Below are positions 37,103 to 64,000 of a stretch of DNA of 64,000 nt, piece by piece. A program made the translations under genes and the position numbers. A model generated the notes under the pieces. It did no database searches. It was given only the letters and a program-made list of their open reading frames with translations, and was not told the DNA's origin. The DNA comes from Candidatus Latescibacterota bacterium (lineage in GTDB: Bacteria > Latescibacterota > UBA2968 > UBA8231), in NCBI GenBank assembly GCA_965204725.1, contig OZ242005.1:1952001-2016000 (forward strand), in the 5' to 3' direction. Position 1 is the stretch's first letter, and the number at the start of each line of letters is the position of its first letter.

Positions 37103-39685
37103 ATGATGACCTTAAATTCGGATCGTGCTCGTGTGTATTTGGGGGATCGGGGTTTGCGCGGCTGTGTTCTTGCCCTGCTCGCCATCTGCACGGTGTGTTT
37201 CTGGATACGCACGGAGCACATCGCTGGGACTCTGCCTTATCCGCAGCATGTCGATGAGGCCATTATCGCAAACGCAGCGGGCGATATTATGAGGTATGGG
37301 GATTGGCATCCGGGGACCTTCAACTACCCGTCCCTCCCCAAATATCTTGCCGTAGCGGCGATGAGCGTCGGTTTCGTCTTCGCCGCGCCCGAATTGGAAG
37401 TCGTTGTCAACAAACAGCGTGGGATCGACATAAAGGATGATCTTGGGGACGTGTCTATGCCATTCTATACCGTTCCGGTCATTGTCGAGAAAGCGCGGTG
37501 GTTGTTTGCGTTGCTGTCGATCGTGGCCTTGGCGATGAGTGGCGTCGTGGCCTATCAACTGCTAGATCGGCCCAGTGCTTTGATACTTGGGCCGCTCGTG
37601 CTTGCACTCTCCTACGACTTCTTTGATATGTCCAAAAGTTATCTAAACGTCGATATCGTCGGTGCTTGTTTCGTCATGCTGGGCATAGCCGCAGCACTGC
37701 AAGGCACTCGCTGTCCTTCCCCATCGCTGCGCTGGCGCGCTGTCATACCGGCAATCTGTGCCGGCTTGGCGGCCGGCAGCAAGTACACCTACGGCCTTCT
37801 TCTGGTGCCCGTCCTGCTTGCCATCTATCTGTTCATGGAGCGTGGCCGCTGGCTTGGGGCGACGACCATCGCCCTAGCGACGGCGGGCCTATCGTTCCTC
37901 GCGGTCGTTCCATATAGCGTGATTGATCTGCCGACTTTTTTGAACGGACTCGCCACCGACGTTGCTGTTTATGCCACCGGGCATCCGGGCCATGAGGCCA
38001 ACCCCGGACTAGACCAACTCGCTTTCTATGTGTTCTGCCTTGCTCAGGATTTCGGGGTTCCCGGCCTTATTCTCTGTTTGCTGGGTCTGATTTACGCTGT
38101 TGTATCCGACTGGCGCAGGGCGCTTGTCTTCCTCTCATTCCCGGTGGCCTTGTTGGCTTTGCTCTCGGCGCAACAAGTCCACTTCTTGCGCAATATAATG
38201 CCTGTTTTCCCCTGCGTCGCAGTACTCATCGCTTGCGGTATTTACTTCCTTCATGGGTGCTTGATGCGCGTTCCTTGGATTCGCCGGATAGAAGTTCGCG
38301 GGCTTCAAAGCGCGATTGGCGTGGTTGGTTTTCTGGGCATCTTTGCGCTGGGCTTGAACTTACCACTCAGCAATTTTGCCGCCCTACAGATGGAAGTCGC
38401 TGGCGAAACTCGCGTAAGAGCGGTGGCTTGGATAAAGGAGCATGTCGCCACAGACACAACCGTTATCATCCCGGCGGAGCTTTATTTCGACTCCCGCCCG
38501 CTGGCTTCTAGTGGCTATCCGATACGGATAGTGGAATTCAAGTCCCTTGACACGGCGCAGCGCATTGACTCGCTCATGGCGGAAATTCCCGGACCCGTGG
38601 TCGTGCTCGTCCCAAAGTGGGTCGTTGATCTTCGGCAACTGGATGCAGACAGGGCCAAAGCCAAGGCGGCAGCACTGAATGAGGCGGTGAAGCAAGCGCA
38701 ACTTGTGCCGTTAGTTGACTTTGGGTCCTTTGGAGTGGAAATCAATCATTATGACTATGGGGGAGTCCCTGGGGGGAATCCCGGATTTAGCATTGCCCGA
38801 AGAGTGGCCGCCGAGCACGTGAACACGAAAGGAGGTTCTTCCTTCGATGCAAAAAGGCATCGCGCCCAGAGACAACGCTATGTGCAGCAACTCATCGAAC
38901 AGGCTGGCGAGCAGGTGATCCACGCCGACTCAACTTGGCCGATTAGCACTTGGGGCGTAGAACGGGCCGACGAGCAGGTGGGTCGCGCCGGCTGGGACGT
39001 GTACCGCAACGGACGCAAGCTGACCTACCACAAACAGCCGTGTGCCCCCGACGACGGGCAGACGAATTTTGTCTTGCAAGTTAGCCCTAACGACCCAGCC
39101 GACCTGCCAGCCGACCGCCAGCAGCACGGCTTTGACCACCTCGACTTCTATTTCCACATGCACGGCGGCGTCCGGCTCGACGACCAGTGCGTGGTGACCG
39201 CCCAACTCCCCGACTACCCCATCGGCCGCATCCATATCGGCCGGTGGATTGACGGCAACCACCGCATGCTCTGGGAAATGAAGGCCAAACCGTTCGCTGG
39301 AGAAAGGCATCGCGCCCAGAGACAACGCTACGTACAGCAACTCATCGAACAGGCCGACGAGCAGGTGGCTCGCGCCGGCTGGAGCGTGTACCGCACGGGA
39401 CGCCAACTGCTCTACCGCAAAGAGCCATGCGTCCCCGCCGACGTGCAGGCGAAGATCGTTTTACACGTCATCCCCACCGACCCAAATGTCCTTTCCATCG
39501 CCCGCCAGCAGCACGGCTATGACAGCCTCGGCTTCTACTTTGACCAGCGCGGCTTCCAGCTCGACGACCAGTGCATCGCAATCGCCCAACTCCCCGACTA
39601 CGCCATCGACCGCATCCGAGTCGGCCAGTGGATTGCCAAAGAGGACCGCACCCTCTGGGAAGCGGAGTTTTCGGCCAGCCAGTGA
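37103..39685 (+). CDS. array gene 1: GT-C fold glycosyltransferase (ArnT/PMT_2-like) with two C-terminal repeat domains
   Basis: QHVDE in the first loop, FNYPSL, GLAAGSKY, many TM helices; C-terminus homologous to the other array genes; start uncertain (37025 or 37103). Confidence 0.75.
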   Translation: MMTLNSDRARVYLGDRGLRGCVLALLAICTVCFWIRTEHIAGTLPYPQHVDEAIIANAAGDIMRYGDWHPGTFNYPSLPKYLAVAAMSVGFVFAAPELEVVVNKQRGIDIKDDLGDVSMPFYTVPVIVEKARWLFALLSIVALAMSGVVAYQLLDRPSALILGPLVLALSYDFFDMSKSYLNVDIVGACFVMLGIAAALQGTRCPSPSLRWRAVIPAICAGLAAGSKYTYGLLLVPVLLAIYLFMERGRWLGATTIALATAGLSFLAVVPYSVIDLPTFLNGLATDVAVYATGHPGHEANPGLDQLAFYVFCLAQDFGVPGLILCLLGLIYAVVSDWRRALVFLSFPVALLALLSAQQVHFLRNIMPVFPCVAVLIACGIYFLHGCLMRVPWIRRIEVRGLQSAIGVVGFLGIFALGLNLPLSNFAALQMEVAGETRVRAVAWIKEHVATDTTVIIPAELYFDSRPLASSGYPIRIVEFKSLDTAQRIDSLMAEIPGPVVVLVPKWVVDLRQLDADRAKAKAAALNEAVKQAQLVPLVDFGSFGVEINHYDYGGVPGGNPGFSIARRVAAEHVNTKGGSSFDAKRHRAQRQRYVQQLIEQAGEQVIHADSTWPISTWGVERADEQVGRAGWDVYRNGRKLTYHKQPCAPDDGQTNFVLQVSPNDPADLPADRQQHGFDHLDFYFHMHGGVRLDDQCVVTAQLPDYPIGRIHIGRWIDGNHRMLWEMKAKPFAGERHRAQRQRYVQQLIEQADEQVARAGWSVYRTGRQLLYRKEPCVPADVQAKIVLHVIPTDPNVLSIARQQHGYDSLGFYFDQRGFQLDDQCIAIAQLPDYAIDRIRVGQWIAKEDRTLWEAEFSASQ

Positions 39686-39745
39686 TGTGTCACAGCGGCG
39701 GGACCGCGAGACCTCACTACACCACACCAGCCTCCAGCCTTCCAA

Positions 39746-39792
39746 GGATCGAGGGCATCTTGCCCTCGTTGAGGGCGTCCCGCCCTCGATCC
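39746..39792. repeat. REP-like double hairpin
   Basis: GGATCGAGGGC-ATCTT-GCCCTCG-TT-GAGGGC-GTCCC-GCCCTCGATCC. Confidence 0.65.
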
Positions 39793-39937
39793 CGGACGCA
39801 GCGGCAACAGCAGAAAGGGCCTACGCAAAGCAAGGGGCGCGTACTTGGGTTGTCGCTTTTCTAAATTGACTTACAATTTAAGGGAACGTGGTAGCCCAGC
39901 CCGGTAGCCCGCTGAACCCAAACCAAAGGAGGAGATC

Positions 39938-40189
39938 ATGAACTGGAAGCAGTTACTAGCAGTGCTAACCCTAGTCGTACTCATGTTTTCCACGGCCATG
40001 ACCGTCTCAACTCTTTACAATATCTCGGGGTTTGAGAGAGTTGAGGGCAGAATTGGGCAGCTTGAGAGTAAAATTGGGCAGCTTGAGAGTAGAATCGACC
40101 GTCTTGACGACAAGATAGACGGACTCTCGAATGAGGTCGCCGAAATAAAGGGCGCCCTAAAAGCACATAAGATCATGGCGAATAGATAA
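39938..40189 (+). CDS. small membrane-anchored coiled-coil protein
   Basis: SD AAGGAGG; N-terminal hydrophobic helix then heptads IGQLESK/IGQLESR/IDRLDDK; lower GC. Confidence 0.7.
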   Translation: MNWKQLLAVLTLVVLMFSTAMTVSTLYNISGFERVEGRIGQLESKIGQLESRIDRLDDKIDGLSNEVAEIKGALKAHKIMANR

Positions 40190-40279
40190 GTTCTGGCCGA
40201 CCTAAACATTCCTTCCCAAACGTTCACTAATTTTTAGCCACTAAGAATACAGACGTACGTGATTGTTTTTAATAAATTT

Positions 40280-42559
40280 ATGAGGGGAGGAATCATCGTC
40301 CTCGCCGGGCTGGGCACCACGCACATCCTCGTCCGCACTGCCACCTATGGCGCGGCCGTCAACGCCGACACCACCCTTCATCTTTCTACGGCCCTGAACT
40401 TCCTCGCCGGAGAGGGCTGGCAGGATTTCACCGGCTCCAAGGCAATCGAGTGGCCGCCCGGCTTCACCCTGCTGCTAGCGGCCTTCGATTGGATCGGCAT
40501 CGAGCCGCTGGCCGCGGGTCGGTGGGTCAACGCCATCGCCTTCGGGCTGACCATCCTCGCCGCAGGTCTCTGGCTGCACTCAAATCTCCGGTCACAGTGG
40601 CTGACGCTGGCGACCACCGCGATCCTCGCGGCCTCCCTGCCCCTGACCCATTTCGCATCCTACTGCATCACCGAGCCGCTCTTCGTCCTGTTCACGCTCC
40701 TCGCCTTGATCCAACTGGCATCCTTCCTCGACAGAAAGACAGCTTGGTCGCCCCTGCTGCTGGCGGCAGTTTTCACCGCATTGGCCGCACTGACCCGCTA
40801 TGTAGGCGTCGCCCTAATCGGCGCTGGCGTCCTCGTGCTGCTGCCCCTCGCTCGGCTGAGGCACACCTTCGTCTTTGGCGCGATCTCGTCTCTGCCCTTG
40901 CTGGCAGTATTGGCGTACAATTGGGCGGTCTCCCAGACCCTGACCGGGCCGAGACCCGGATCGGGACAGTCTTTGTCAGACTCGCTGAGCCAAGTAATGG
41001 AGGTGTTCCGCGCGTGGGTCGTTCCCCCCAACGCGCCGGCGGGGTTGGCGCCTCTGCTGTGGCTGGCGGTCGCCGTGGTCGGGCTGGCCGGCGCGGCCGT
41101 CGTCCTTCGTTCCGCTCGAAGGCGAAGCGACTTCCGTTTGAAGCCGGCACTCCCTTTCGGGATGTTCGCTGGGGGCTACCTCGTATTCATGATCGTCGTC
41201 GTGCCGCTCACGGTCGGGGAGGGGGTCAACAGCCGCTTCCTGCTGCCGGTGTATGTGCCGTTGCTGTTGACGGCGGTGTTGCTGCTGGATCGGTTCCTGT
41301 CCATCGAGGCTATGGGACAGATGGTGGCCGCCCGCTACGGTCTGACTGCCCTCGTCCTGCTAGCCACCCTCGCCCACGTCGGCTGGTCAGCGCACAGGAA
41401 CCTCACTATTACCGCCGAAGCGCGGGTCGCCGGGTTCGGGATGTACAACAACACCTATTGTGCAAGCTCCGATATCCTGAATTACATCCGGGACAACCGC
41501 ATCAATGGCCGGATGTACAGCAACAACTGCTACCTTACTTGGTTTTGGGACCAGACCGCGGCCCCGGGAAAGCACCAACTTCTCCCAGACGAGATTCACA
41601 GTTTGACGTCGACCATACTGCGGTGGACCAACAGCGGCAGCGCACACATCGCATGGTCCCGGAGTGAAAAGTCTTTTTACGACTTCGACGACCTCGACAT
41701 CCGGGTCCTGCCCGGAGTAGAACCCGTGGCCGAGTTGTACGACGGTGTTGTATTCCGCGTAACGGCCACCGAACCGTTCGATGCGGAAAGGCATCGCGCC
41801 CGAAAACAACGCTACGTAGATCAACTCATCGAGCAGGCTGGCGAGCCGGTAGTCCGCGCTGCTTGGGATGTGTACCGCACAAGACGCAAGCTGACCTACC
41901 TCAAAAACCCGTGTGCCTCCGCCGACACGCAGGCGGAGTTCATCTTGCAGGCCATCCCCGTCGATCCAGCCGACCTGCCCTCCCACCGCAGGCCGTATGG
42001 CTTTGACTCCCTCAGCTTCTATTTCCACATCCGCGGCGGCATCCAGCTCGACGACCAGTGCGTGGTGACCGCCTCTCTCCCCGACTACGACATCAGCCGT
42101 ATCCGAGTCGGCCAGTGGAGTACCGAAGAGAACCGCACCCTTTGGGAAACGACAGCCGAACCGTTCAATGCAGACAGGCATCGCGCCCAAAGACAACGCT
42201 ACGTAGATCAACTCATCGAACAGGCCAGCGAGCAGGTGGCCCGCGCCGGCTGGAGCGTGTACCGCAAGGGACGCAAGCTGATCTACCGCAAAGAGCCGTG
42301 TGCTCCCGCCGACACCCAAGCGAAGCTCGTTTTACACGTCACCCCTGTCGATCCGGCCGACCTGCCGGCTGACCGCGAGCGGCACGGCTTTGACAGCCTC
42401 GGCTTCTATTTTGACCAGCGCGGCTTCCGGCTCGACGACCAGTGCATCGCAATCGCCCAACTCCCCGACTACCCCATCGGCCGCATCCGGGTCGGCCAGT
42501 GGATTGCCGACGGGAACCGCACCGTCTGGGATGCGGAATTTCTGGAGATCGGCGGATAA
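40280..42559 (+). CDS. array gene 2: GT-C fold membrane glycosyltransferase-like, 2 C-terminal repeat domains, replaced N-terminus
   Basis: D..STALNFLAGEGW..WPP loop, TEPLF, ALAALTRY, RFLLPVY motifs; lacks the MPMPEL leader. Confidence 0.75.
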   Translation: MRGGIIVLAGLGTTHILVRTATYGAAVNADTTLHLSTALNFLAGEGWQDFTGSKAIEWPPGFTLLLAAFDWIGIEPLAAGRWVNAIAFGLTILAAGLWLHSNLRSQWLTLATTAILAASLPLTHFASYCITEPLFVLFTLLALIQLASFLDRKTAWSPLLLAAVFTALAALTRYVGVALIGAGVLVLLPLARLRHTFVFGAISSLPLLAVLAYNWAVSQTLTGPRPGSGQSLSDSLSQVMEVFRAWVVPPNAPAGLAPLLWLAVAVVGLAGAAVVLRSARRRSDFRLKPALPFGMFAGGYLVFMIVVVPLTVGEGVNSRFLLPVYVPLLLTAVLLLDRFLSIEAMGQMVAARYGLTALVLLATLAHVGWSAHRNLTITAEARVAGFGMYNNTYCASSDILNYIRDNRINGRMYSNNCYLTWFWDQTAAPGKHQLLPDEIHSLTSTILRWTNSGSAHIAWSRSEKSFYDFDDLDIRVLPGVEPVAELYDGVVFRVTATEPFDAERHRARKQRYVDQLIEQAGEPVVRAAWDVYRTRRKLTYLKNPCASADTQAEFILQAIPVDPADLPSHRRPYGFDSLSFYFHIRGGIQLDDQCVVTASLPDYDISRIRVGQWSTEENRTLWETTAEPFNADRHRAQRQRYVDQLIEQASEQVARAGWSVYRKGRKLIYRKEPCAPADTQAKLVLHVTPVDPADLPADRERHGFDSLGFYFDQRGFRLDDQCIAIAQLPDYPIGRIRVGQWIADGNRTVWDAEFLEIGG

Positions 42560-44941
42560 ATGCCAATGCCTGAGTTGAAAGACGCCGCCATCGAGAAGAT
42601 CGCCCGGTTCGGGCGCGCTCCCTTCGCGCTGCTCATCGTCGTTCTCGCTGGGCTGGGGACAGCGCACATCCTCGTCCGCACCGCTACCTACGGCGCCACG
42701 GTCATCACGGACTCCTTCCATTTCCTTTCTACGGCCCTGAACTTCCTCGCCGGAGAGGGCTGGCGGGATTTCACGGGCGAACCGATGACCTTATGGCCGC
42801 CTTTGTTTCCGCTGCTGCTGGCGGCCTTCGGTTGGGTCGGCGTCGATCCGCTGGAGGCGGGTCGGTGGGTCAACGCCGTGGCCTTTGGGCTGACCATCTT
42901 GGCCGCGGGGGGTTGGCTGTACTCGAACCTCCGGTCGCGGTGGCTGGCACTGGTCGCCACCGGGGTCCTAACGGTCTCCCTGCCCTTGAGTAACTGGGCA
43001 GCCCACTTCATGACCGATCCGCTCTTCGTCCTGTTTACACTCCTCGCCTTGATGCAGTTGGCGGCCTTCCTCAACCGCGGCGCAAGGACATCCCTGTGGT
43101 GGGCGGCGTTTTTCACCGCGCTGGCCGCGCTGACCCGCTATCCGGGCGTGGTCCTGATCGGCGTCGGCGTCCTGCTGCTGCTGGGGTGGCGCACCCGTTC
43201 GCTGGCCGCCCGGTTGAAAGACGCTGTCGTATTTGGGGCGGTCTCATCCATTCCCCTCGCGGGGGTGCTGACGCGCAACTGGGTCGTCTCTGGGACCCTG
43301 ACCGGGCCGAGAAGCGGGGCGGGGCAGTCCCTGTCCGATGGGCTGAGCCAAGTGGTGGATGGATTCCGGGGGTGGGTGATTCCCCCGAACACGCCGGACG
43401 GGTTGGGTTATCTCCTGTCGATAGCGGCCGGACTAGTCGTTCTAGCAGCGGGAGCGGTCGTCTTCTGTCGGGTCGCGGCGTACGGCAGGGGCGGCAAGTC
43501 GCCATCCTTCGGGTTGGGGCCGGTTCTCCCTTTCGGGGGGTTCGCCGCGATTTACCTCGTATTCATCGTCGTCACCGTGCCGCTCGTGGTCCCTTGGGGG
43601 ATGCTCGCCCGCTTTCTGCTGCCGATATACGTGCCGCTGCTGTTGACCGGGGTGTTTTTGCTGGACCGGCTCCTGTGCATTGAGGCGGCGGGATGGATGG
43701 CGGCCGGCCGCTGCGTTGTGGCGGCCCTCGTCTTGCTGGCCACCCTCGCCCACATCGGCTTCTCGGCGCGAGAAAACCTCCGTATTACCATCCAAGCTTA
43801 TGGTGGTGGATACTACTCTTACAACAACACCACCCATTGGCAACAGTCCCTAGATTATATCCGGAATCACCATATTGAGGGCAGGATTTACAGCAATCAC
43901 GCACTCCTTGCTTGGTTTGGGGATAGGACCGCCGCCCTGGGAAAGTACCAGCAGATCCGTGCCGGGTTGCCCGTTTTGGCGAGGGACATGATGCAGTGGA
44001 CCAAAGACGGCATCGGTGCCCATATCGTTTGGTTCCGGTCGTTCGGTGATCAAGGTTTTTACGGCTACGACCTCATGGATATCCGTCTGCTGCCCGGGGT
44101 GGAATCCGTGGCCGAGTTGGCCGACGGCGTGGTATTCCGCGTAACGGCCGCCGAACCCTTCGATGAGGCCAAGCATCGCGCCCGAAAACAACGCTACGTG
44201 CAGCAACTCATCGAACGGGCTGGTGAGTTGGTGGTCCGCGCCGATTGGGACGTGTACCGCACAGGACGCAAGCTGACATACCTCAAAAACCCGTGTGCCT
44301 CCGCCGACACGCAGGCGGAGTTCATCTTGCACGCCACCCCCGTCGATCCAGCCGACCTGCCCTCCCACCGCAGGCCGTACGGCTTTGACTCCCTCAGCTT
44401 CTATTTCAACGTCCGCGGCGGCATCCGGCTCGACGACCAGTGCGTGGTGAGTACCCAACTCCCCGACTACGACATCAGCCGCATCCGAGTCAGCCAGTGG
44501 AGTACCGAAGAGAACCGCACCCTCTGGGAAACGACGGCCGAACCGTTCAATACAGAAAGGCATCGCGCCCAAAGACAACGCTACGTAGATCAACTCATCG
44601 CACAGGCCGACGAGCAAGTGGCCCGCGCTGGCTGGAACGTGTACCGCAAGGGACGCAAGCTCATCTACCGCAAAGAGCCGTGTGCCCCCGCCGACGTGCA
44701 GGCAAAGTTCGTCTTGCACGTCACCCCCACCGACCCAAATGACCTGCTGGCCGACCGCAAGTGGCGCGGCTTTGACAGCCTCGGCTTCTATTTTGACCAG
44801 CGCGGCTTCCGGCTCGACGACCAGTGCATCGCAATCGCCCAACTCCCCGACTACCCCATCGGCCGCATCCGGGTCGGCCAGTGGATTGCCGACGGGAACC
44901 GCACCGTCTGGGAAGCGGAGTTTCTGGAGATCGGCGAATGA
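42560..44941 (+). CDS. array gene 3: GT-C fold membrane glycosyltransferase-like, 2 repeat domains
   Basis: Same motifs; start abuts the upstream stop. Confidence 0.78.
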   Translation: MPMPELKDAAIEKIARFGRAPFALLIVVLAGLGTAHILVRTATYGATVITDSFHFLSTALNFLAGEGWRDFTGEPMTLWPPLFPLLLAAFGWVGVDPLEAGRWVNAVAFGLTILAAGGWLYSNLRSRWLALVATGVLTVSLPLSNWAAHFMTDPLFVLFTLLALMQLAAFLNRGARTSLWWAAFFTALAALTRYPGVVLIGVGVLLLLGWRTRSLAARLKDAVVFGAVSSIPLAGVLTRNWVVSGTLTGPRSGAGQSLSDGLSQVVDGFRGWVIPPNTPDGLGYLLSIAAGLVVLAAGAVVFCRVAAYGRGGKSPSFGLGPVLPFGGFAAIYLVFIVVTVPLVVPWGMLARFLLPIYVPLLLTGVFLLDRLLCIEAAGWMAAGRCVVAALVLLATLAHIGFSARENLRITIQAYGGGYYSYNNTTHWQQSLDYIRNHHIEGRIYSNHALLAWFGDRTAALGKYQQIRAGLPVLARDMMQWTKDGIGAHIVWFRSFGDQGFYGYDLMDIRLLPGVESVAELADGVVFRVTAAEPFDEAKHRARKQRYVQQLIERAGELVVRADWDVYRTGRKLTYLKNPCASADTQAEFILHATPVDPADLPSHRRPYGFDSLSFYFNVRGGIRLDDQCVVSTQLPDYDISRIRVSQWSTEENRTLWETTAEPFNTERHRAQRQRYVDQLIAQADEQVARAGWNVYRKGRKLIYRKEPCAPADVQAKFVLHVTPTDPNDLLADRKWRGFDSLGFYFDQRGFRLDDQCIAIAQLPDYPIGRIRVGQWIADGNRTVWEAEFLEIGE

Positions 44942-49478: not shown

Positions 49479-50450
49479 CTACTCGGCTCGGTCTAACAGG
49501 AGCCTAAAGGCTTCGAGGCTGGGCACCTGTATGGCCGCCCGATGCAACTGCTTGAGACGCGGCACATCGTCGGTGGCCTCAATGCGGGCGGCCAACGGAT
49601 CCGACGCAGCTAGCCCAAAGCGAACCTCGAGCACCTCGAGCAGAGCTTCAATGGTGCGTTCTCGGCCGCCTTGCTCAATGCCCTGCTCAATGCCCTGCTC
49701 GATGCCCTGCTCAATGCCCTGCTCAATGCCCTGCTCGATGCCCTGCTCGATGCCCTGCTTAATGCCCTGCTTAATCCCCTTTTCCGTGAAATACTGCGCT
49801 ACCGACGACTCGTACATGGTCTCCTCCTCGATGATGGTCATGATCGTCTCTAAGTTATACACCAGCCCGCTCAACATCGCAAGATCGGCCAGATAATTGG
49901 CTTTGACGCCCTCGTCCATCGGCACCTGTTGCGCCCGGTTGACACACTGGCGCAACCACCCCTCGGCATCTACTCCCACCGGCGGCTGCATCAGCGGCGC
50001 GAACGGCAGCAAGCCGGAAGGTCCCGCGGCGAGGATGCGTTGGCCGTCTATCTCAATCAGCCGAATGACCTTGTATTGCACTAAGACGCGGTAGCCGGAA
50101 CGCTCTTGGACGTAGTAGCCCGGATCATTTCGGCCAGCGTCTGGGCGCAAATAGATTACGTTGGAATAGATGGGTCGGTTGTGCTGTTCAATGCCGCGTC
50201 CGATATAGCCGATCATGCGGCGCGGCATGGGCGGTTTGCTGTCGGTGGTTTGGAACTCGTGGTGGACCAGCACCTCCTCGCCGCCGACGTGGACGCGAAT
50301 GAGGCTATCGGTGCGGTGGGTTTCGGCGGTGGGCTGCTCGGTATCGACGACGCCGAGGACTTGGACGTCGTCTTGTTGGAGGGCGAAGCGGGCGAAGTCG
50401 GCGGGGTAGGTGTGGATGAGGTGTTTGGCGATGGAATCGAATTCGGCCAT
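49479..50450 (-). CDS. Rpn family recombination-promoting nuclease/putative transposase, copy 1
   Basis: FDSIAKHL, RTDSL, HHEFQT, MPRRM, GLLPFAPL, [KE]QGI repeats, LEVRFG C-terminal domain. Confidence 0.85.
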   Translation of the reverse strand: MAEFDSIAKHLIHTYPADFARFALQQDDVQVLGVVDTEQPTAETHRTDSLIRVHVGGEEVLVHHEFQTTDSKPPMPRRMIGYIGRGIEQHNRPIYSNVIYLRPDAGRNDPGYYVQERSGYRVLVQYKVIRLIEIDGQRILAAGPSGLLPFAPLMQPPVGVDAEGWLRQCVNRAQQVPMDEGVKANYLADLAMLSGLVYNLETIMTIIEEETMYESSVAQYFTEKGIKQGIKQGIEQGIEQGIEQGIEQGIEQGIEQGIEQGGRERTIEALLEVLEVRFGLAASDPLAARIEATDDVPRLKQLHRAAIQVPSLEAFRLLLDRAE

Positions 50451-52720: not shown

Positions 52721-52756
52721 ATTTGACCTCAACCTAGGACTGCTATCAATGGATAA

Positions 52757-54829: not shown

Positions 54830-54876
54830 CTCGAAAGCATGAAATGTTCATCGGCACCGTCTTTTTGCCTATAAGG

Positions 54877-54931
54877 CGTCCTTCCCGCGCACGAACGTCA
54901 CCCCGTGCCCCGACACGGGGCGGGAATCCAG
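54877..54931. repeat. GTCATTCCCGC-type REP with a nested hairpin insert
   Basis: CGTCCTTCCCGCGCA[CGAACGTCACCCCGTGCCCCGACACGGG]GCGGGAATCCAG. Confidence 0.65.
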
Positions 54932-54965
54932 TCTTGAAAGATGTAGGATTACTATATATGAATGA

Positions 54966-57425: not shown

Positions 57426-57432
57426 TATACCA

Positions 57433-59787
57433 ATGCCTGAGTTGAAAGACGCCGCCATCGAGCGACTCGCCCGGTGCTGGCGCGACCGCTACGCACTGCT
57501 CATCGTCGTCCTCGCCGGGCTGGGCACCGCCCACATCCTCGTCCGCACCGCTACCTACGGCGCCGCAGTCGGCACGGACTCCATCGTTTTCCTTTCTACG
57601 GCCCTGAACTTCCTCGCCGGAGAGGGCTGGCGGGATTTCACCGGAGTACCGATGGTGGTTTGGCCGCCCTTGTTCCCCTTGCTGCTGGCGGCCCTCGGTT
57701 GGGTTGGCCTCGAGCCGCTGGCGGCGGGTCGGTGGGTCAACGCCGCAGCTTTCGGACTGACCATCCTCGCCGCCGGGTGCTGGCTGCGCTCGAATGTTAG
57801 GTCGCAGGGGCTGGCACTGGCCGCTACCGCGACCCTCGCGGCCTCCCTGCCCTTGAGCGATTGGGCGTCCAACTATATGACCGAGCCCCTCTTCGTCCTG
57901 TTGACGCTCCTCGCCTTGATCCAGTTGGCGGCCTTCCTCCAGCGCGGCGGGAGGACGCCCCTTTTGTGGGCGGCGGTTTTCACCGCGCTGGCCGCACTGA
58001 CCCGCTATCCGGGCGTGGTGCTGATCGGCACCGGCGTCCTCATCCTGTGGCCCCTCGCTCGGTGGAAGCAGGTCCTCGTCTTTGGCGCGGTCTCGTCCGT
58101 GCCCTTGCTGGCGGTATTGGCGCACAATTGGACAGTCTCCGCGACTTGGACAGGAGACCGATCAGACCCTGTAAGGCAGTCCCTATCCGAGGGGCTACGC
58201 CAGACCGTCGAGGTGTTCCGCGCGTGGATCGTCCCCCCCCACGCGCCGGATGGGGTTGCGTATCTGCTGTGGCTGGCCATCGGGTTGGTCGTCCTCGCCG
58301 GCACCGCGGTCGTCCTGCACACCCTCCGAAGGCACCGCGACGTCCCAGAGGCGACCCCAGTCTATTTCCGCTTAGGGCCGGTACTCCCATTCGGGGTGTT
58401 CGCCTTGATCTACTTCGTATTCATCATCGTCGTCGTGCCACTGACGATTCCCTATGGAATCGGCGACCGACTCCTGTTACCGGGGTACGTGCCGCTGCTG
58501 TTGACGGCGGGGTTCTTGCTGGATCGGTTCCTGTGCATCGCGGCGGCGGGCTGGATGGTGGCCATCCGCTACGGGATAGCGTCCCTCGTCTTGCTCGCCA
58601 CCCTCGCCCACTTATGCTTCTCGGCGCGAGAAAACCTCCGTCTTACCACCCACGCTTGGGTCGCCGGATACCCGGCCCAAGCGTACAACGCCGCCGCTTG
58701 GCAACAGTCCGAGACCCTGAATTACCTCCGGGACCACCACATTGAGGGCAGGATTTACAGCAACCACAGACCCCTTGCTTGGTTTGCGGATCGGACCGCG
58801 GCTTACGAAAAATACCAGCCGATCCGTGCCGGGTTGCCTCGTTTGGCGCGGGACATAATGCAGTGGACCGAGGACGGCACCCATATCGTTTGGTTCAGGG
58901 CGTTCCACAATCAAGGTGTTTACGGCTACGACCTCATGGACCTCCGTCTGTTGTCCGGCGTGGAACCCGTGGCCGAACTGGCCGATGGCGTGGTATTCCG
59001 CGCAACGGCGACCGAGCCGTTCGATGCAGAAAAGCATCGCGCTCGGAAACAACGCTACGTGCAGGAACTCATTGAACAGGCTGGCGAGCCGGTGGTCCGC
59101 GCTGGCTGGGACGTGTACCTCAAGGAACGCAAGCTGACCTACTTCAAAGAGCCCTGCGCCCCGGCCGACACGCAGGCGATGTTCGTTTTACACGCCATCC
59201 CCCTCGACCCAGCCGACCTGCCCGCCCACCGCAAGCCGTACGGCTTTGACCTCCTCGACTTCTATTTCGACTGGCGCGGCGGCGTGCGGCTCGACGACCA
59301 GTGTGGGGTGATCGCCCAACTCCCCGCCTACGCCATCGGCCGCATCCGGATCGGCCAATGGATTGCCGCCGAAAACCGCACCCTCTGGGAAACGACGGCC
59401 GAACCGTTCGACGCGAAAAGGCATCAACGCTACGTGGAACAACTCATCGCACAGGCTGACGAGCAGGTCACTCGCGCCGGCTGGGACGTGTACCGCACCG
59501 GACGCAAGCTGATCTACCGCAAACAGCCATGCGCTCCCGCCGACGTGCAGACCAAGTTCATTTTGCACGTCACCCCGGCCGATCCCAATGAGCTGCCGGC
59601 CAACCGCCAGCGGCACGGCTTTGAAAGCCTCGGCTTCTATTTTGACCAGCGCGGCTTCCAACTCAATGACCAGTGCATCGCAATCGCCCAACTCCCCGCC
59701 TACGCTATCGATCGCATCCGAGTCGGCCAGTGGATTGCCGCCGGGAATCGCACTGTCTGGGAAGCGGAGCTTTCGGCCAGCCGGTGA
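57433..59787 (+). CDS. array gene 9: GT-C fold membrane glycosyltransferase-like, 2 repeat domains
   Basis: Same motifs; the first leader ATG is mutated to ATA (57427), so the second ATG at 57433 is the likely start. Confidence 0.78.
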   Translation: MPELKDAAIERLARCWRDRYALLIVVLAGLGTAHILVRTATYGAAVGTDSIVFLSTALNFLAGEGWRDFTGVPMVVWPPLFPLLLAALGWVGLEPLAAGRWVNAAAFGLTILAAGCWLRSNVRSQGLALAATATLAASLPLSDWASNYMTEPLFVLLTLLALIQLAAFLQRGGRTPLLWAAVFTALAALTRYPGVVLIGTGVLILWPLARWKQVLVFGAVSSVPLLAVLAHNWTVSATWTGDRSDPVRQSLSEGLRQTVEVFRAWIVPPHAPDGVAYLLWLAIGLVVLAGTAVVLHTLRRHRDVPEATPVYFRLGPVLPFGVFALIYFVFIIVVVPLTIPYGIGDRLLLPGYVPLLLTAGFLLDRFLCIAAAGWMVAIRYGIASLVLLATLAHLCFSARENLRLTTHAWVAGYPAQAYNAAAWQQSETLNYLRDHHIEGRIYSNHRPLAWFADRTAAYEKYQPIRAGLPRLARDIMQWTEDGTHIVWFRAFHNQGVYGYDLMDLRLLSGVEPVAELADGVVFRATATEPFDAEKHRARKQRYVQELIEQAGEPVVRAGWDVYLKERKLTYFKEPCAPADTQAMFVLHAIPLDPADLPAHRKPYGFDLLDFYFDWRGGVRLDDQCGVIAQLPAYAIGRIRIGQWIAAENRTLWETTAEPFDAKRHQRYVEQLIAQADEQVTRAGWDVYRTGRKLIYRKQPCAPADVQTKFILHVTPADPNELPANRQRHGFESLGFYFDQRGFQLNDQCIAIAQLPAYAIDRIRVGQWIAAGNRTVWEAELSASR

Positions 59788-59869: not shown

Positions 59870-60817
59870 CTACTCGGCTCGGTCTAACAGGAGCCTAAAG
59901 GCTTCGAGGCTGGGCACCTGTATGGCCGCCCGATGCAACTGCTTGAGACGCGGCACATCGTCGGTGGCCTCAATGCGAGCGACCAACGGATCCGACGCAG
60001 CCAGCCCAAAGCGAATCTCTAGCACCTCAAGCAGAGCTTCAATGGTGCGTTCTCGGCCCCCTCGCTCGATGCCCTGCTCAATGCCCTGCTCAATGCCCTG
60101 CTCGATGCCCTGCTCAATGCCTTGCTTAATGCCCTGCTTAATCCCCTTTTCCGTGAAATACTGCGCTACCGACGACTCGTACATGGTCTCCTCCTCGATG
60201 ATGGTCATAATCGTCTCTAAGTTATACACCAGCCCGCTTAACATCGCAAGATCGGCCAGATAGTTCGCCTTGCGTCTCTCGTCCATCGGCACCTGTTGCG
60301 CCCGGTTGACACACTGGCGCAACCACCCCTCGGCATCGACGCCGGCGGGCGGTTGCATCAACGGCGCAAACGGCAGCAAGCCGGAAGGTCCGGCGTCGAG
60401 GATGCGTTGACCGTCGATCTCAATCAGCCGGATGACCTTGTATTGCACCAAGACGCGATAGCCGTGCCGCTCTTGGACATAGTGCCCTGGGTCATTCCGG
60501 CCAGCGTCTGGGCGCAGGTAGATGACGTTGGAATAGATGGGCCGGTTGTGCTGTTCAATGCCGCGTCCGATATAGCCGATCATGCGGCGCGGCATGGGGG
60601 GTTTGCTGTCGGTGGTTTGGAACTCGTGGTGGACCAGCACCTCCTCGCCGCCGACGTGGACGCGAATGAGGCTATCGGTGCGGTGGGTTTCGGCGGTGGG
60701 CTGCTCGGTATCGACGACGCCGAGGATTCGGATGTCGTCTTGTTGGAGGGCGAAGCGGGCGAAGTCGGCGGGGTAAGTGTGGATGAGGTGTTTGGCGATG
60801 GAATCGAATTCGGCCAT
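59870..60817 (-). CDS. Rpn family nuclease, copy 2
   Basis: Near-identical to copy 1, 8 aa shorter in the repeat tract. Confidence 0.85.
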   Translation of the reverse strand: MAEFDSIAKHLIHTYPADFARFALQQDDIRILGVVDTEQPTAETHRTDSLIRVHVGGEEVLVHHEFQTTDSKPPMPRRMIGYIGRGIEQHNRPIYSNVIYLRPDAGRNDPGHYVQERHGYRVLVQYKVIRLIEIDGQRILDAGPSGLLPFAPLMQPPAGVDAEGWLRQCVNRAQQVPMDERRKANYLADLAMLSGLVYNLETIMTIIEEETMYESSVAQYFTEKGIKQGIKQGIEQGIEQGIEQGIEQGIERGGRERTIEALLEVLEIRFGLAASDPLVARIEATDDVPRLKQLHRAAIQVPSLEAFRLLLDRAE

Positions 60818-60964: not shown

Positions 60965-61044
60965 CTGGATTGCCGCGTGCGCGGGAATGACGGAAGGCTT
61001 AGGACGACGCAAGAACTCGTCATTCCCGTGCAAGCGGCAATCCA
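60965..61044. repeat. REP doublet (GTCATTCCCG...AATCC family)
   Basis: TGGATTGCCGCGTGCGCGGGAATGACG...CGTCATTCCCGTGCAAGCGGCAATCCA inverted pair. Confidence 0.75.
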
Positions 61045-61132
61045 TAAAAGCGTCCTACCCCAACAACTGAACTGTTCTTGTGCAGGCAGGACGGCTTAAA
61101 CGGGTTCGGACAGAACGCTATTACGCGAAGCC

Positions 61133-62056
61133 CTACTCGGCTCGGTCTAACAGGCGTCCAAAGGCGTCAAGGCTGGGCACCTGTATGGCCGCCCGATGCA
61201 ACTGCTTGAGGCGCGGCACATCGGCGGTGGCCTCAATGCGAGCGACCAACGGATCCGACGCGGCCAACCCAAAGCGAACCTCTAGCACCTCAAGCAGACC
61301 TTCAGTGGCGAGTTCTCGGCCCCCTCGCTCAATGCCCTGCTCAATGCCTTGCTCGATGCCCTGCTTAATCCCCTGCTTAATCCCCTTTTCCGTGAAATAC
61401 TGCGCTACCGACGACTCGTACATGGTCTCCTCCTCGATGATGGTCATAATCGTCTCTAAGTTATACACCAACCCGCTCAACATCGCAAGATCGGCCAGAT
61501 AGTTCGCCTTGACGCCCTCGTCCATCGGCACCTGTTGCGCTCTATTCACACACTGGCGCAACCACCCCTCGGCATCGACGCCTGCGGGCGGCTGCATCAA
61601 CGGCGCAAACGGCAGCAGGCCCGAAGGTCCCGCGGTGAGGATGCGTTGACCGTCGATCTCAATCAGCCGAATGACCTTGTATTGCACCAAGACGCGGTAG
61701 CCGCGTCGTTCTTGGACGTAGTAGCCCGGGTCATTTCGGCCAGCGTCTGGGCGCAAATAGATGACGTTGGAATAGATCGGCCGGTTGTGCTGTTCAATGC
61801 CGCGTCCGATATAGCCGATCATGCGGCGCGGCATGGGCGGTTTGCTGTCGGTGGTTTGAAACTCGTGGTGGACCAGCACCTCCTCGCCGCCGACGTGGAC
61901 GCGAATGAGGCTATCGGTGCGGTGGGTTTCGGCGGTGGGCTGCTCGGTATCGACGACGCCGAGGATTTGGATGTCGTCTTGTTGGAGGGCGAAGCGGGCG
62001 AAGTCGGCGGGGTAGGTGTGGATGAGATGCTTGGCGATGGAATCGAATTCGGCCAT
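61133..62056 (-). CDS. Rpn family nuclease, copy 3
   Basis: Near-identical to copies 1 and 2, 16 aa shorter than copy 1. Confidence 0.85.
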   Translation of the reverse strand: MAEFDSIAKHLIHTYPADFARFALQQDDIQILGVVDTEQPTAETHRTDSLIRVHVGGEEVLVHHEFQTTDSKPPMPRRMIGYIGRGIEQHNRPIYSNVIYLRPDAGRNDPGYYVQERRGYRVLVQYKVIRLIEIDGQRILTAGPSGLLPFAPLMQPPAGVDAEGWLRQCVNRAQQVPMDEGVKANYLADLAMLSGLVYNLETIMTIIEEETMYESSVAQYFTEKGIKQGIKQGIEQGIEQGIERGGRELATEGLLEVLEVRFGLAASDPLVARIEATADVPRLKQLHRAAIQVPSLDAFGRLLDRAE

Positions 62057-62182
62057 GAGCCTTGCCTTGGTTGCGGGTGAGAAGGGGTGGTATGTGCAAT
62101 AGGCAAGAATCGTGCCATGGCGGCGGCTCAGAGGGGAGACGGGGGATCGGCGGCGTGGGTGTGTAGCGAAAAGGGGACAGGC

Positions 62183-62311
62183 GTGGGGCAACATAAAAAC
62201 AAGGCCCCGGAGGGATTTACCAAAAAATACAGCATTCATACATTGGTTTATGTTGAACAACATCACAAGAAATGGCACCGTCAATGGAAACGGGAACTCA
62301 TAGCGCGGCAG
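62183..62311 (+). pseudogene. GIY-YIG (YhbQ/UPF0213-like) nuclease remnant
   Basis: VGQHKNKAPEGFTKKYSIHTLVYVEQH-HKKWHRQWKRELIARQ; lacks the N-terminal GIY/YIG motifs and the A..REK helix. Confidence 0.7.
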
Positions 62312-62346
62312 ATTTTGCATATAAGGCGTCATTTGTATGTTGCGTA

Positions 62347-62525
62347 TTCCTTTCAGCTAGGCCACTCTGAAAGGGCCGCGTGCGGGGCGCGTCGTCCGTC
62401 ATTGGGTGCGCCGGCACGTCCGTGCCGGCGGCACCGTGCGGGAGTAAGACACCCCTCACGCTGAGTTGTCGCTCCGAACCGATACAAGGGCACAAGGCCC
62501 GTATTACAAGTGGGGAGGACAGCAC
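62347..62525 (+). ncRNA. IS110 bridge RNA (predicted)
   Basis: 5' hairpin 62349-62374; target loop with TCCGTCATT (62395-403) and GCGGGAG (62438-444); donor loop with ACCGATAC (62478-485) and TACAAGT (62505-511); each pair surrounds a hairpin. Confidence 0.8.
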
Positions 62526-62556
62526 CAGTATCCATTATAACCAGGAGGCTATTCGC

Positions 62557-63510
62557 ATGAAAGTTATGGCCGGTATAGACGTAGGAAAGAGGAGCTTGGA
62601 CGTGTCGGTAGCGGCTGGTCCGGCGCGTCGATTTGACAACACGCCTGCGGGGCGTACGGCCTTGGTGGAGTGGTTGGAACGTCAGGGGGCGACCGAGGTG
62701 GTGTGCGAACCGACCGGGGGCTATGAGCGGCCTCTGGTGCGTCGGGTGCAGGCCACGGGATGGCCGATCCACCTAGTGCATCCCAACCGTGTGCGCCACT
62801 TTGCCCGGGCGGCGGGCAACCACGCCAAGACCGACGCGCTGGACGCACAGATGCTGGCGCGGTATGGGATGGCCTTCGAGTTGCCGCGTCCGCTGGCCAA
62901 AGAAGCCGACCGAGAGGTGGTACAGGACCTGCTGCGTCGGCGCAAGCAGTTAGTCAACCAGCGCGTACAGGAGCGTCATCGGCTGGACCAAGGGCAAACC
63001 GAAGGGGCGCGCATCTCTATCGAGCGGCACCTCCAATGGCTCGACGAAGAGATTAGCCAGCTCGACGAAGCCTACCAGCAGGCGTTGGCACACAGCGTCT
63101 CATTGGCCGAGGCCGCCGCCCTCTACCGCAGTGTACCGGGCGTGGGTGCGTTGACTGCGGCGACGCTAGTGGGGTATCTGCCGGAGTTAGGGCACTACAG
63201 CGGCAAGGAGGTGACCTCGTTGGTCGGGCTGGCTCCGTGGGCCAACGACAGCGGCCGACAGCAGGGGTATCGCTCGATCCGGGGCGGACGAGGCACCGTG
63301 CGGAAGGTGTTGTACTTGGCGGCCTTGGCCGCCATCCGCTGCAATGACGACCTCAAGCGGTTCTATCAACGACTGTGTACCCGGGGCAAGACCGGCAAGG
63401 TGGCCTTGGTCGCGGTAATGCGGAAGCTCCTGCTGGTGCTCAACGCTATTGCCCAGCGAGGCTCCCCGTGGGTCCAACACCCCACCCCAGCAGGCCACAA
63501 AAAGGCTTGA
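62557..63510 (+). CDS. IS110 family DEDD recombinase/transposase
   Basis: SD CAGGAGG; GIDVGK, CEPTG, KTDALDA (DEDD), SVPGVG, NDSG (catalytic Ser), VAVMRKLL. Confidence 0.95.
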   Translation: MKVMAGIDVGKRSLDVSVAAGPARRFDNTPAGRTALVEWLERQGATEVVCEPTGGYERPLVRRVQATGWPIHLVHPNRVRHFARAAGNHAKTDALDAQMLARYGMAFELPRPLAKEADREVVQDLLRRRKQLVNQRVQERHRLDQGQTEGARISIERHLQWLDEEISQLDEAYQQALAHSVSLAEAAALYRSVPGVGALTAATLVGYLPELGHYSGKEVTSLVGLAPWANDSGRQQGYRSIRGGRGTVRKVLYLAALAAIRCNDDLKRFYQRLCTRGKTGKVALVAVMRKLLLVLNAIAQRGSPWVQHPTPAGHKKA

Positions 63511-63527
63511 CCCGCAACACAGATACT

Positions 63528-63637
63528 CCCGCGCAAGCGGGAATCCAGTGTTCTTTCAGGGGAGGACGCTTTTATGGATTCCCGCGTTCGCGGGAATGAC
63601 GAAAAATAACGGACATGACGAAAAATAACGGACGAAA
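63528..63637. repeat. REP doublet (first copy split by IS110) followed by a 19-bp tandem duplication
   Basis: CCCGCGCAAGCGGGAATCCA...TGGATTCCCGCGTTCGCGGGAATGAC; ATGACGAAAAATAACGGAC x2. Confidence 0.75.
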
Positions 63638-63669
63638 AAATGCGAATCGACGCGGCTGTTGACAGATGA

Positions 63670-64000
63670 ATGCTAATGCCTGAGTTGATGCGCTCCGTCA
63701 TCGAATGGCTCGCCCGGTTCTGGCGCGACCGCTTCCCCCTGCTCATCGTCCTTATCGCCGGGCTGGGCACCGCCCACATCCTCGTCCGCACCGCCACTTA
63801 CGGCGCGGCCGTCAGCCACGAATCCACAATCCACCTTTCTACGGCCCTGAACTTCCTCGCGGGCGAGGGCTGGCGGTATTTCACGGGCAGCCCGATGATA
63901 GGATGGCCGCCCTTGTTCCCCCTGCTGCTCGCGGTCGGCGGTTGGGTCGGCATCGAGCCGCTAGAGGCGGGTCGGTGGGTCAACGCCATGGCCTTTGGGC
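63670..64000 (+). CDS. array gene 10 (5' part, runs off window): GT-C fold membrane glycosyltransferase-like
   Basis: MLMPELMRSVIEWLARFWRDRFPLLIVLIAGLGTAHILVRTATYGAAVSHESTIHLSTALNFLAGEGWRYFTGSPMIGWPP. Confidence 0.8.
   Translation, partial: MLMPELMRSVIEWLARFWRDRFPLLIVLIAGLGTAHILVRTATYGAAVSHESTIHLSTALNFLAGEGWRYFTGSPMIGWPPLFPLLLAVGGWVGIEPLEAGRWVNAMAFG

Follow-up and report, generated by a model that had tools for sequence, protein, structure and literature searches.

Organization of the array

The window, that is, the whole stretch of 64,000 nucleotides analyzed here, belongs to the genome of a sponge-associated Latescibacterota (G000); its sister species is denoted G027. The ORF listing and the translations revealed ten polytopic membrane genes on the plus strand, each with an open frame, as well as three antisense Rpn-like genes, an IS110 element and one small ORF, all of which an earlier note on this DNA had described. 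The features are, in order:

34791-34866: tRNA-Ala, set apart from the array by a GHL10 gene
36833-36940, plus strand: 5' fragment of an additional paralog, from the first outer-loop region (in tblastn 64% to family residues; frame read)
37103-39685, plus strand: unrelated GT-C-like membrane protein (by homologue annotations), 860 aa, two family C-terminal modules
39938-40189, plus strand: 83-aa ORF with a hydrophobic N-terminus and a coiled coil, no family match above cut-off
40185-40290, plus strand: AT-rich palindromic leader and ATG, common to lead genes elsewhere
40280-42559, plus strand: GT-C paralog, 759 aa, two modules (PF02366 25.2 bits, cut-off 22.7)
42560-44941, plus strand: GT-C paralog, 793 aa, two modules, start directly at the preceding stop
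44942-47362, plus strand: GT-C paralog, 806 aa, two modules
47363-49450, plus strand: GT-C paralog, 695 aa, one module
49479-50450, minus strand: Rpn-like nuclease, 323 aa, internal SD motif and ATG (112-aa short product), about 10 four-residue repeats
50705-52720, plus strand: GT-C paralog, 671 aa, one module; the modelled gene (pLDDT 92.3)
52757-54829, plus strand: GT-C paralog, 690 aa, one module, conserved loop-1 Asp replaced
54966-57425, plus strand: GT-C paralog, 819 aa, two modules, 95% DNA-identical copy at C1:1.247 Mb
57433-59787, plus strand: GT-C paralog, 784 aa, two modules
59870-60817, minus strand: Rpn-like nuclease, 315 aa, internal start, about 8 repeats
61133-62056, minus strand: Rpn-like nuclease, 307 aa, internal start, about 5 repeats
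62557-63510, plus strand: IS110-family transposase (NF033542 206.9 bits, cut-off 140), 3 loci in the genome
63670-65646, plus strand: GT-C paralog, 658 aa, starts in the window and ends past its edge

The array continues past the window edge and comprises 13 family genes up to window-coordinate 71394; two further family genes lie beyond it at 80217-83958. The leader at 40185-40290 has an interrupted G-run behind its ATG and is followed by a gene in frame. A sigma-70 promoter scan yielded 2 sites, compared with 4.6 expected. An integron cassette array, which would have attC sites between its genes, is not supported: the distances between stop and start were 0 bp at three junctions and 7 bp at one. 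The tRNA-Ala, downstream of which the array had been placed, is present, but the GHL10 gene intervenes in G000 and in the congeners fetched. Most arrays are not located beside a tRNA, and the tRNA-Ala is not supported as integration site. No family gene was present at the GHL10-LivJ site in any of the six congeners fetched. REP/MITE repeats were found in the array, as had been reported, but a GIY-YIG coding remnant was not, neither by six-frame reading of 8 spacers nor by a genome-wide motif scan.

A mis-assembly that merged strain variants is unlikely. In run X1, which is probably the source sample and hence not independent, six unique pieces of the array had depths of 77-97 with zero differences, and two flanking pieces had depths of 89-99. 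Joints in the output of this run were disregarded because paralogs elsewhere in the genome produce them, and run X3 was left out (depth 2-3, identical pieces, flanks uncovered). The gene order still rests on the assembly, because no listed contig spans the whole stretch.

Predicted fold and conserved residues

The model of the gene at 50705-52720 (pTM 0.91) showed roughly 11 membrane helices, the first loop being long. It thus agrees with the definition of the GT-C superfamily, i.e. 7-13 membrane helices and an extracytoplasmic loop after helix 1 (PMC11127046). Foldseek yielded 44 matches at E<=0.001, and those listed were GT-C enzymes or GPI-transamidase relatives, among them STT3 (1.5e-7) and ArnT (3.5e-7). 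The VIA comparisons resulted in Z 25.1 with Pmt4 (rmsd 4.1, 356 aligned) and Z 23.4 with ArnT (rmsd 4.4, 431 aligned, residues 18-521). The Pmt4/Pmt2 matches (Z 24-25) were the best for the membrane part, tied with STT3 and ArnT; the Pmt match was confined to residues 18-411, whereas the ArnT and STT3 matches also took in the periplasmic domain. The predicted structure therefore confirmed the GT-C fold that the earlier note had proposed. Sequence searches of the PDB returned nothing meaningful, and the ESM Atlas no usable match. Among the nine array genes scanned, PF02366 scored above the cut-off in one, and PF13231 reached at most 22.8 (cut-off 26.1).

In 50 copies from G000, P81, R/K193 and R346 were found in all, D/E153 in 49, and D51 in 43; D51 was nearly invariant in 135 homologues. 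From its position, D51 is the putative catalytic Asp after helix 1. Loop 1 carries an Asp-Ser motif in most copies. The positions 49, 50, 54, 149, 151 and 340-342, which are adjacent to conserved residues, were among the 45 most variable.

The C-terminal module

The C-terminal domains of the family are alpha/beta plus Ig-like. The best fold match of the Ig-like module was CBM9 (Z 7.0, rmsd 3.8, 111 aligned), tied with FN3/Ig domains and not above the generic Ig/FN3 background. None of 86 members matched Pfam. The module was present in 9 of 61 relatives, it occurs in 1-10 tandem copies in homologues, and it is also fused to a sulfotransferase (ASST), Wzy_C and other GT-C proteins. Some genomes contain 27-68 module matches, while it was not found in most close congeners.

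The first membrane gene, at 37103-39685, is a special case. Its assignment to GT-C rests on homologue annotations and not on a model: its homologues carry PF13231/PF02366, and one is named ArnT-like. A profile comparison between the family and its membrane part gave a probability of 0.5%. Only 2 of 120 homologues among those listed have the module, and its module DNA is 88-90% identical to the family paralogs; the gene has captured two copies of the family C-terminal module.

Copy number and distribution

The window locus is not the only one of its kind. The family has about 52 genes in G000, many of them in several arrays; those of 23 (the largest), 7, 3 and 2 genes contain no Rpn. The distribution is patchy: searches of 30 congeners did not find the family in 26, and different symbiont phyla of sponges have a related clade in common at 85-91% DNA identity. 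PMT_2-type GT-C genes are already frequent in the genus, with 7-37 matches per genome. A phage or plasmid vector was not recovered from IMG/VR (two short patterns), GenBank phages or PLSDB, nor was a family match obtained in JGI metagenomes with two short patterns. Neither the family nor the array was found described in the literature covered, largely main texts outside subscription journals; supplements might list such a family as a hypothetical protein. To judge from this literature, the GT-C clade and its C-terminal module, which lacks a Pfam family, are undescribed.

Turnover and recombination

Between G027 and G000, flanking genes are 93% identical, and the best matches of family genes merely 57-70%, which indicates that the family turns over fast between sister species. 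The paralog at 47363-49450 clusters with the G027 gene that comes first at this locus (support 1.0, 70% aa). The G000 copies do not form one clade (AU p 3.7e-6), and 11 copies of the window array are scattered on the tree (9 changes, compared with 10.4 after shuffling; 56 of 500 as low). The best partner changes along the family genes, and the copies are therefore mosaic; no permutation out of 500 had a PHI-like statistic as low. These results bear out the earlier claim of an expanding and recombining repertoire. A conspecific comparison had been proposed to reveal variation: the fast turnover was seen against G027, but strains of the same species in two other studies (about 98% in the flank) have kept at least 4-5 array genes at 93.5-99.5%, and array content is thus not rewritten within the species.

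Arrays may also move as units. The insert L013 comprises 11,346 bp, its site is empty in G000, and a duplication was not seen. Both termini lie inside a family gene, and the joined ends form one in-frame gene of 623 aa. One G027 array thus looks circularly permuted, as if an excised circle had been reinserted.

Phase variation is a further possible source of diversity. Poly-G tracts of 8-26 follow the lead ATG in 11 genes at other loci, 4 in frame and 7 out of frame, and homopolymer errors of long reads could account for these frames. Phase-variable LOS/LPS glycosyltransferases with poly-G tracts occur in Neisseria, Haemophilus, Campylobacter and Helicobacter; they are mostly cytoplasmic GT-A/B enzymes and few in number. 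Here, too, runs of G occupy the 5' end of genes, some in frame and others not, but they are confined to lead genes, and the window array contains no G-run of 9 or more.

Selection on the family copies

The dN/dS values were quantified for 15 disjoint pairs of close paralogs; estimates of this kind are biased by gene conversion. They amounted to 0.55 (0.52-0.59) for the membrane helices, 1.23 (0.88-1.70) for segments around conserved residues, and 1.53 (1.02-2.59) for loop 339-346, which was the sole small loop with an interval above 1 and was picked after the data had been seen. For the family overall the value was 0.62, which we counted against the explanation preferred below; the control, 136 flanking orthologues in G027, had a median of 0.15. 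Variation is distributed over the whole gene.

The overall and the helix values would fit near-neutral birth and death. Recombination would have multiplied a single GT-C gene, gained by horizontal transfer, in a repeat-rich genome sheltered by the host, and most of the copies would be redundant and under relaxed selection. Five of the 52 copies are interrupted, D51 is missing in 7 of 50, and both observations, as well as the patchy distribution in the genus, are in line with this process. Furthermore, G000 holds other tandem expansions with 9-22 members, and given these, part of the amplification may reflect a general tendency of the genome. However, about 47 of the 52 copies (about 120 kb) have retained open frames, the key arginines are invariant directly beside the most variable residues, and other genomes show independent expansions of different GT-C types with the same module, such as 12 genes in tandem in G053. 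On balance, near-neutral amplification is an unlikely explanation.

Glycan context and comparison with known systems

Genes resembling those of flippases, Wzy_C, GT1/GT2, methyltransferases and deacetylases adjoin relatives of the family, and envelope enzymes carry the module, in agreement with the surface-glycan context that had been suggested. G000 contains 23 GT2 matches, a decaprenyl-phosphate phosphoribosyltransferase and one GtrA, at 3.00 Mb; no GtrA/GtrB pair was found in the array. At the empty site of congeners, the phosphoribosyltransferase that lies near the array end occurs as well.

ArnT (GT83; PDB 5f15, 5ezm) shares with the family the GT-C fold with a periplasmic domain and a conserved Asp after the first helix. 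It differs by an identity of 13%, by PMT_2 scores below the cut-off, by the extra Ig-like module of the family, and by one copy versus 52. The NCBIfam model of ArnT did not match any of 3 genes, and arn genes were absent among the neighbours read. Hallmarks of PMT enzymes are MIR domains and an Asp-Glu motif. Pmt1/2/4 (GT39; PDB 9i5l, 6p25) gave the top Z for the membrane part, but the family has no MIR domains, carries Asp-Ser in loop 1, and the match stops at residue 411.

These similarities could mean that the acceptor is another one, i.e. that the family O-glycosylates surface or secreted proteins like PMTs, or modifies lipids like ArnT, with paralogs specializing by target. The tied Pmt4/Pmt2 matches, the single PF02366 hit and the many expanded surface-protein families in the genome are compatible with such targets. 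Yet the Pmt match covers no more than the membrane part, MIR domains are missing, and relatives are located in polysaccharide islands that contain flippase and Wzy_C genes, so that a protein or lipid acceptor appears rather improbable.

According to PMC11127046, the GtrA/GtrB/Gtr* seroconversion systems and GT136 of Citrobacter youngae O1 are variable GT-C enzymes that alter surface glycans, as proposed here; some have a C-terminal carbohydrate-binding module, and one GT-C gene lies beside its synthase and flippase. In contrast, dozens of GT-C genes stand alone in G000, and possible donor genes are core and unlinked. A three-component linkage of the Gtr type was rejected, as the single GtrA is far off.

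Rpn-like genes

Rpn-like genes yielded 19 matches throughout G000. Of 30 congeners, 25 had 5-28 matches, and the family is missing from most of these. TIGR01784 scored 23-30 bits (cut-off 52.1; E 5e-5 to 5e-7), and PADLOC reported a weak C-terminal match alone. An internal SD motif with ATG was matched in 11 of the 19 ORFs examined, including all three window genes, together with 2-10 repeats. The study of Rpn toxin-antitoxin systems describes an internal start and variable four-residue repeats, reports that autonomous transposition was not found, and proposes hitchhiking (10.1101/2023.05.02.539157). The genes studied here resemble these nucleases in the internal start, which would give a C-terminal product of 80-112 aa, in the 2-10 four-residue repeats, in the many copies, and in ragged ends at which inverted repeats and target duplications were not seen. 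They differ in being divergent (23-30 bits versus a cut-off of 52), and their toxicity and any part in phage defence are putative.

The earlier note had suggested that embedded Rpn nucleases stimulate the array, i.e. that they cut DNA and thereby drive its recombination and spread. Co-occurrence was above chance in three of four genomes: a gene with the module lay no more than 1.5 kb away from 3 of 17 Rpn loci in G000 (0.51 expected), 2 of 16 in G027 (0.41) and 5 of 23 in G019 (0.42; p 5e-5), and a similar enrichment was seen in only one of four control repeat families. Two G027 insertions, whose sites are empty in G000, consist of the same leader-gene-Rpn unit (89.8% over 3.27 kb), which has thus been copied as one at least twice, and the G000 copy at 1.247 Mb also moves with Rpn. 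However, in G044 none of 47 loci was near a module-bearing gene (0.89 expected), and the 23-gene array has no Rpn. Of seven G027 loci without a G000 family gene, five lack Rpn, including both six-gene arrays and the circularly permuted one, and no Rpn separates the four family genes at the tRNA-Ala locus of G027. One MITE family is likewise enriched at junctions (7 of 53; 0.36-1.46 expected), the G000 cases share flanks and are not independent, and hitchhiking is what the Rpn study proposes. An engine role of Rpn is thus very unlikely; the genes look like passengers. They are dispersed toxin-antitoxin-like units that lie near family genes above chance and are sometimes moved with them, but are not needed, and the Rpn link that suggested a new programmed system is weak.

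Interpretation

We consider it fairly probable that the window array is a store of a GT-C repertoire that diversifies the surface glycan by recombination, with Rpn units hitchhiking, and the about 52 copies probably vary the surface sugars of the bacterium. It is hardly credible that the proteins lack catalysis and act as membrane receptors or lectins whose GT-C scaffold has diversified for binding: the variable outer surface, the 1-10 tandem Ig-like modules and the seven copies without D51 would suit it, but most copies keep the expected acidic and basic active-site residues and the relatives lie in polysaccharide islands.

As to catalysis, donor, acceptor, role of the module, phase variation and selective agent in the preferred reading of a recombining glycan repertoire, we infer the following. 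The family would have entered the lineage horizontally. Its members would be GT-C enzymes of the inner membrane, with a polyprenyl-phosphate carrier as sugar source and an envelope glycoconjugate as target, most likely side branches of a surface polysaccharide, and the Ig-like module probably binds the acceptor or the assembly site. Ordinary RecA-type recombination among paralogs, i.e. unequal crossover and gene conversion, would diversify the copies, multi-gene circles may excise and reinsert elsewhere, and Rpn units would land at array junctions and hitchhike with copied segments. Selection would retain the catalytic core and permit or favour change around the substrate pocket, so that donor, linkage or acceptor specificity would drift apart among the copies. 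At some lead genes, slippage in poly-G tracts may turn copies on or off. The outcome would be a variable surface glycan that serves phage evasion or host discrimination within the sponge.

Wider implications

A broader reading, which we offer tentatively and regard as doubtful, is a toolkit for tailoring extracytoplasmic glycans that symbionts of certain sponges would share across phyla. In this toolkit, several GT-C types, sulfotransferases, SGNH-type acyltransferases, Wzy-like ligases and oxidoreductases would all be tagged with one unnamed Ig-like module that docks on a common acceptor, and this lineage would hold about 50 selected specificities, spread by excised circles and switched by poly-G tracts. 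If true, whole communities would share a glycan code for acceptance by the host or evasion of phages. How sponges discriminate resident bacteria from food, and how symbionts resist phages, are open questions for which surface glycans have been proposed to matter (PMC4453008). The family provides concrete candidates for both questions of host recognition and phage resistance, and its fifty natural variants, in which the core is constant and the pocket differs, represent a panel for the determinants of GT-C specificity.

The window array is real and extends beyond the window

The earlier note had described ten membrane genes, three Rpn-like genes, an IS110 and one small ORF, and all of these were found. 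The array in fact continues beyond the window to a total of 13 genes, i.e. the unrelated first gene (37103-39685), 11 paralogous GT-C glycosyltransferase-like genes (the family) and a gene of a third membrane type, which lacks the C-terminal Ig-like module of the family; two further paralogs follow 9 kb beyond it. Several junctions have no spacer, which suggests translational coupling of the genes. Four REP/MITE families, each with ~50-100 copies genome-wide, occur at 34897-35160, 39740-39790, 54823-54950, 60980-61030 and 63530-63600. Small hydrophobic-plus-coiled-coil ORFs recur ahead of family arrays in this genome and in the sister species (window 39938-40189; L019:2962-3632).

The window spans C1:1,952,001-2,016,000, C1 being one of the two contigs of the 5.43-Mb genome. 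This genome was scored as 94% complete and 10% contaminated, values that resemble those of many single-contig congeners. The stretch was found in public runs including five labelled as sponge metagenome (two studies). In run X1, which is probably the source sample and thus not independent, six unique array pieces had depths of 77-97 with no differences, compared with 89-99 for two flank pieces, which makes a mis-assembly of strain variants unlikely; no contig spanning it was among the contigs listed. In strains from two other studies (runs X4 and X8), the flank was ~98% identical and pieces of 4-5 array genes were 93.5-99.5% identical, and the contigs diverged from the reference upstream of 37154, a region that holds a paralog remnant in this genome. 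Thus, the array content is mostly common within the species, and its 5' end is variable.

Fold and C-terminal module

A structure model of gene 50705 (built from 135 sequences; pLDDT 92.3) matched STT3, ArnT, Emb, Pmt4 and ALG enzymes in Foldseek, and in VIA the Z value was 25.1 against Pmt4 over residues 18-411 and 23.4 against ArnT over residues 18-521. These results confirmed the proposed GT-C fold. Family HMMs were nearly blind to it: among nine array genes scanned, PF02366 exceeded the cut-off in one and PF13231 in none.

The module comprises ~120 residues forming a helix and a beta-sandwich. Its top fold match was CBM9 (Z 7.0, level with FN3/Ig domains), and none of 86 members had a Pfam match. 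Because GT-C enzymes with acceptor-binding modules are already known (PMC11127046, in excerpt), acceptor binding by the module is a reasonable inference, but only that. According to homologue annotation, gene 37103 belongs to another GT-C group; the module was present in only 2 of its 120 listed homologues, and the gene therefore acquired its modules by capture. At E<=1e-30, a profile search retrieved 3,978 clusters; module numbers in the best 150 ranged from 0 to 10. The module was also found on ASST sulfotransferases, GSDH/cytochrome c proteins, Wzy_C proteins and other GT-C types. Loci L031, L039 and L047 (Entotheonella, Pseudomonadales) contain tandem membrane-anchored proteins with the module that look SGNH/AlgX-like by eye and have no Pfam/HMM match. 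The membrane type found at the end of the window array, a different family, is expanded at L065-L067: the related genome G053 has 12 tandem copies and G037 has 4, most of them bearing 2-3 of these modules.

An expanding and recombining family

A tblastn search of the genome gave 55 matches: 52 correspond to genes and two to short remnants, and an additional one comes from a split gene. The genes are grouped in arrays of 23, 11+2, 7, 3, 2 and 2, plus two singles, and five copies are interrupted. No other recent family in the genome is as large: this one accounts for 50 of its 3,319 called genes, and the next in size has 22. Of 61 related genomes, nine contained the module (68, 40, 37, 29, 28, 27, 6, 5 and 1 matches); it was not found in the other 52, which include many single-contig genomes from the same genus. 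At the GHL10-LivJ site, none of the six congeners fetched had a family gene. PMT_2-type genes are generally common in the genus (7-37 matches per genome).

For 136 flanking genes of the sister species (best matches >70% identity), the median identity was 93%, dS 0.22 and dN/dS 0.15; family best matches were 57-70% identical with dN/dS of 0.47-0.77. Its tRNA-Ala locus contains four family genes, directly following the tRNA, without Rpn between them and without the GHL10 gene (window 35234-36808), which is kept in congeners. A tree of 80 rows (48 from this genome, 31 from the sister species, one outgroup; two divergent genes of this genome and two copies without the full core in one ORF were omitted) rejected a single clade of this genome's copies (AU p 3.7e-6). 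The 23-gene array was clustered (7 changes versus 20.1 shuffled). The window array was not (9 versus 10.4), which argues that it is a patchwork rather than a simple tandem expansion. In a PHI-like test, 0 of 500 permutations were as low, the closest partner switches along family genes, and gene 54966 has a 95% identical copy at 1.247 Mb. Together with the turnover in the sister species, these findings bear out an expanding, recombining repertoire. Modules of neighbouring genes are up to 95% alike, more than most catalytic parts.

In the sister species, a six-gene insert of 11,346 bp (L013:1852-13197) occupies a site that is empty in the window's genome. Both ends lie inside a family gene and join in frame as one 623-aa gene, no duplication is visible, and the array is circularly permuted. 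The simplest reading of this one case is that a circle was excised between paralogs and then reinserted. Flank swaps at L016, L019, L020 and L056 also suggest rearrangements at family genes.

Rpn genes are probably passengers

Rpn-like genes gave 19 matches in the genome; 44 of 61 relatives carry them, and 25 of the 30 congeners are among these. Each of the three copies in the window contains an internal SD motif with ATG as well as variable four-residue repeats, the design of Rpn toxin-antitoxin genes (10.1101/2023.05.02.539157, in excerpt). The same excerpt reports no autonomous transposition, suggests hitchhiking and allows for some recombination initiation.

It had been proposed that these nucleases possibly stimulate recombination of the array. 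In favour, Rpn genes were enriched beside module-bearing genes in this genome (3/17), the sister species (2/16) and G019 (5/23), compared with 0.4-0.5 expected, and a leader-gene-Rpn unit was copied to two sister-species sites. However, the cases in this genome have common flanks, and one of four control repeat families was likewise enriched at junctions. Moreover, the value was 0/47 in G044, the 23-gene array contains no Rpn gene, and 5 of 7 sister-species loci whose counterpart has no family gene lack Rpn. Thus, the association stood in part and the driving role was not supported: Rpn genes are best read as passengers that may at most stabilise or occasionally assist.

Poly-G tracts and selection

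Many lead genes share an AT-rich leader. G-runs of 8-26 follow the ATG in 11 genes (two in this genome, nine in the sister species), 4 in frame and 7 out of frame. All five genes with runs <6 and a leader ATG were in frame; one further gene, probably with a GTG start, was scored out of frame. In gene 40280 the leader is present and the run is interrupted. Switching of lead genes is possible, and homopolymer assembly error would give the same picture. Nine other sites, most of them intergenic, have a G/C run of 13-26 bases immediately before an imperfect palindrome of similar type.

Poly-G tracts and G/C-run sites
C1:1249688; C1:1175897-1175917; L013, L015, L019, L022, L034, L040, L058: poly-G tracts in lead family genes, immediately after the start codon
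C1:172217, 973531, 1929221, 1930531, 3705993, 3825568, 4824834, 4855116, 5205966: G/C run plus palindrome

Across 50 copies of this genome, R346 and P81 are invariant, and R/K193 is conserved in 50, D/E153 in 49 and D51 in 43; positions beside these residues are among the most variable. From 15 disjoint close pairs, dN/dS was 0.62 overall, 0.55 in membrane helices and 0.68-0.75 in loops and the periplasmic domain. It reached 1.23 (0.88-1.70) around the conserved residues and 1.53 (1.02-2.59) in loop 339-346, segments that were picked post hoc, and all estimates are biased by conversion. With these reservations the pattern fits specificity change, and relaxed selection is a possible alternative.

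Polysaccharide islands and relation to known systems

A species-genome scan yielded 45 loci from Latescibacterota, Gammaproteobacteria, Dehalococcoidia, Nitrospirales, Binatia, Entotheonella and Acidobacteriota, taxa typical of sponge symbionts. One clade, with ~40% identity to the window genes, is common to these phyla with 85-91% DNA identity in blocks of up to 4.7 kb; the direction of transfer was left unassigned. It lies within islands containing flippase, Wzy_C, GT1/GT2, methyltransferase, radical-SAM and deacetylase-like genes, in agreement with the surface-glycan context that had been proposed.

Cross-phylum polysaccharide-modification island
L028-L030, L032, L045, L046: up to ~91% DNA identity

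A decaprenyl-phosphate phosphoribosyltransferase gene scored above cut-off near the array end (window coordinates 84723-85586; L080:6723-7586), and congeners have one too. Its product might supply a pentose donor.

Listings and abstract starts of the literature contained no description of the family or array. In excerpt, GT83 is abundant in sponge Chloroflexi (PMC6306507), generic GTs and nothing more specific are mentioned in PMC12993501, and a changed O-antigen has been proposed to protect bacteria from phagocytosis by the sponge and from phage (PMC4453008). On the features tested, the paralogs do not belong to ArnT, PMT or the linked three-component (Gtr-type) systems. In summary, array and family are real, undescribed and within a known enzyme class, and by likeness the family would work in the manner of Gtr-type or GT136-type periplasmic glycan tailoring.
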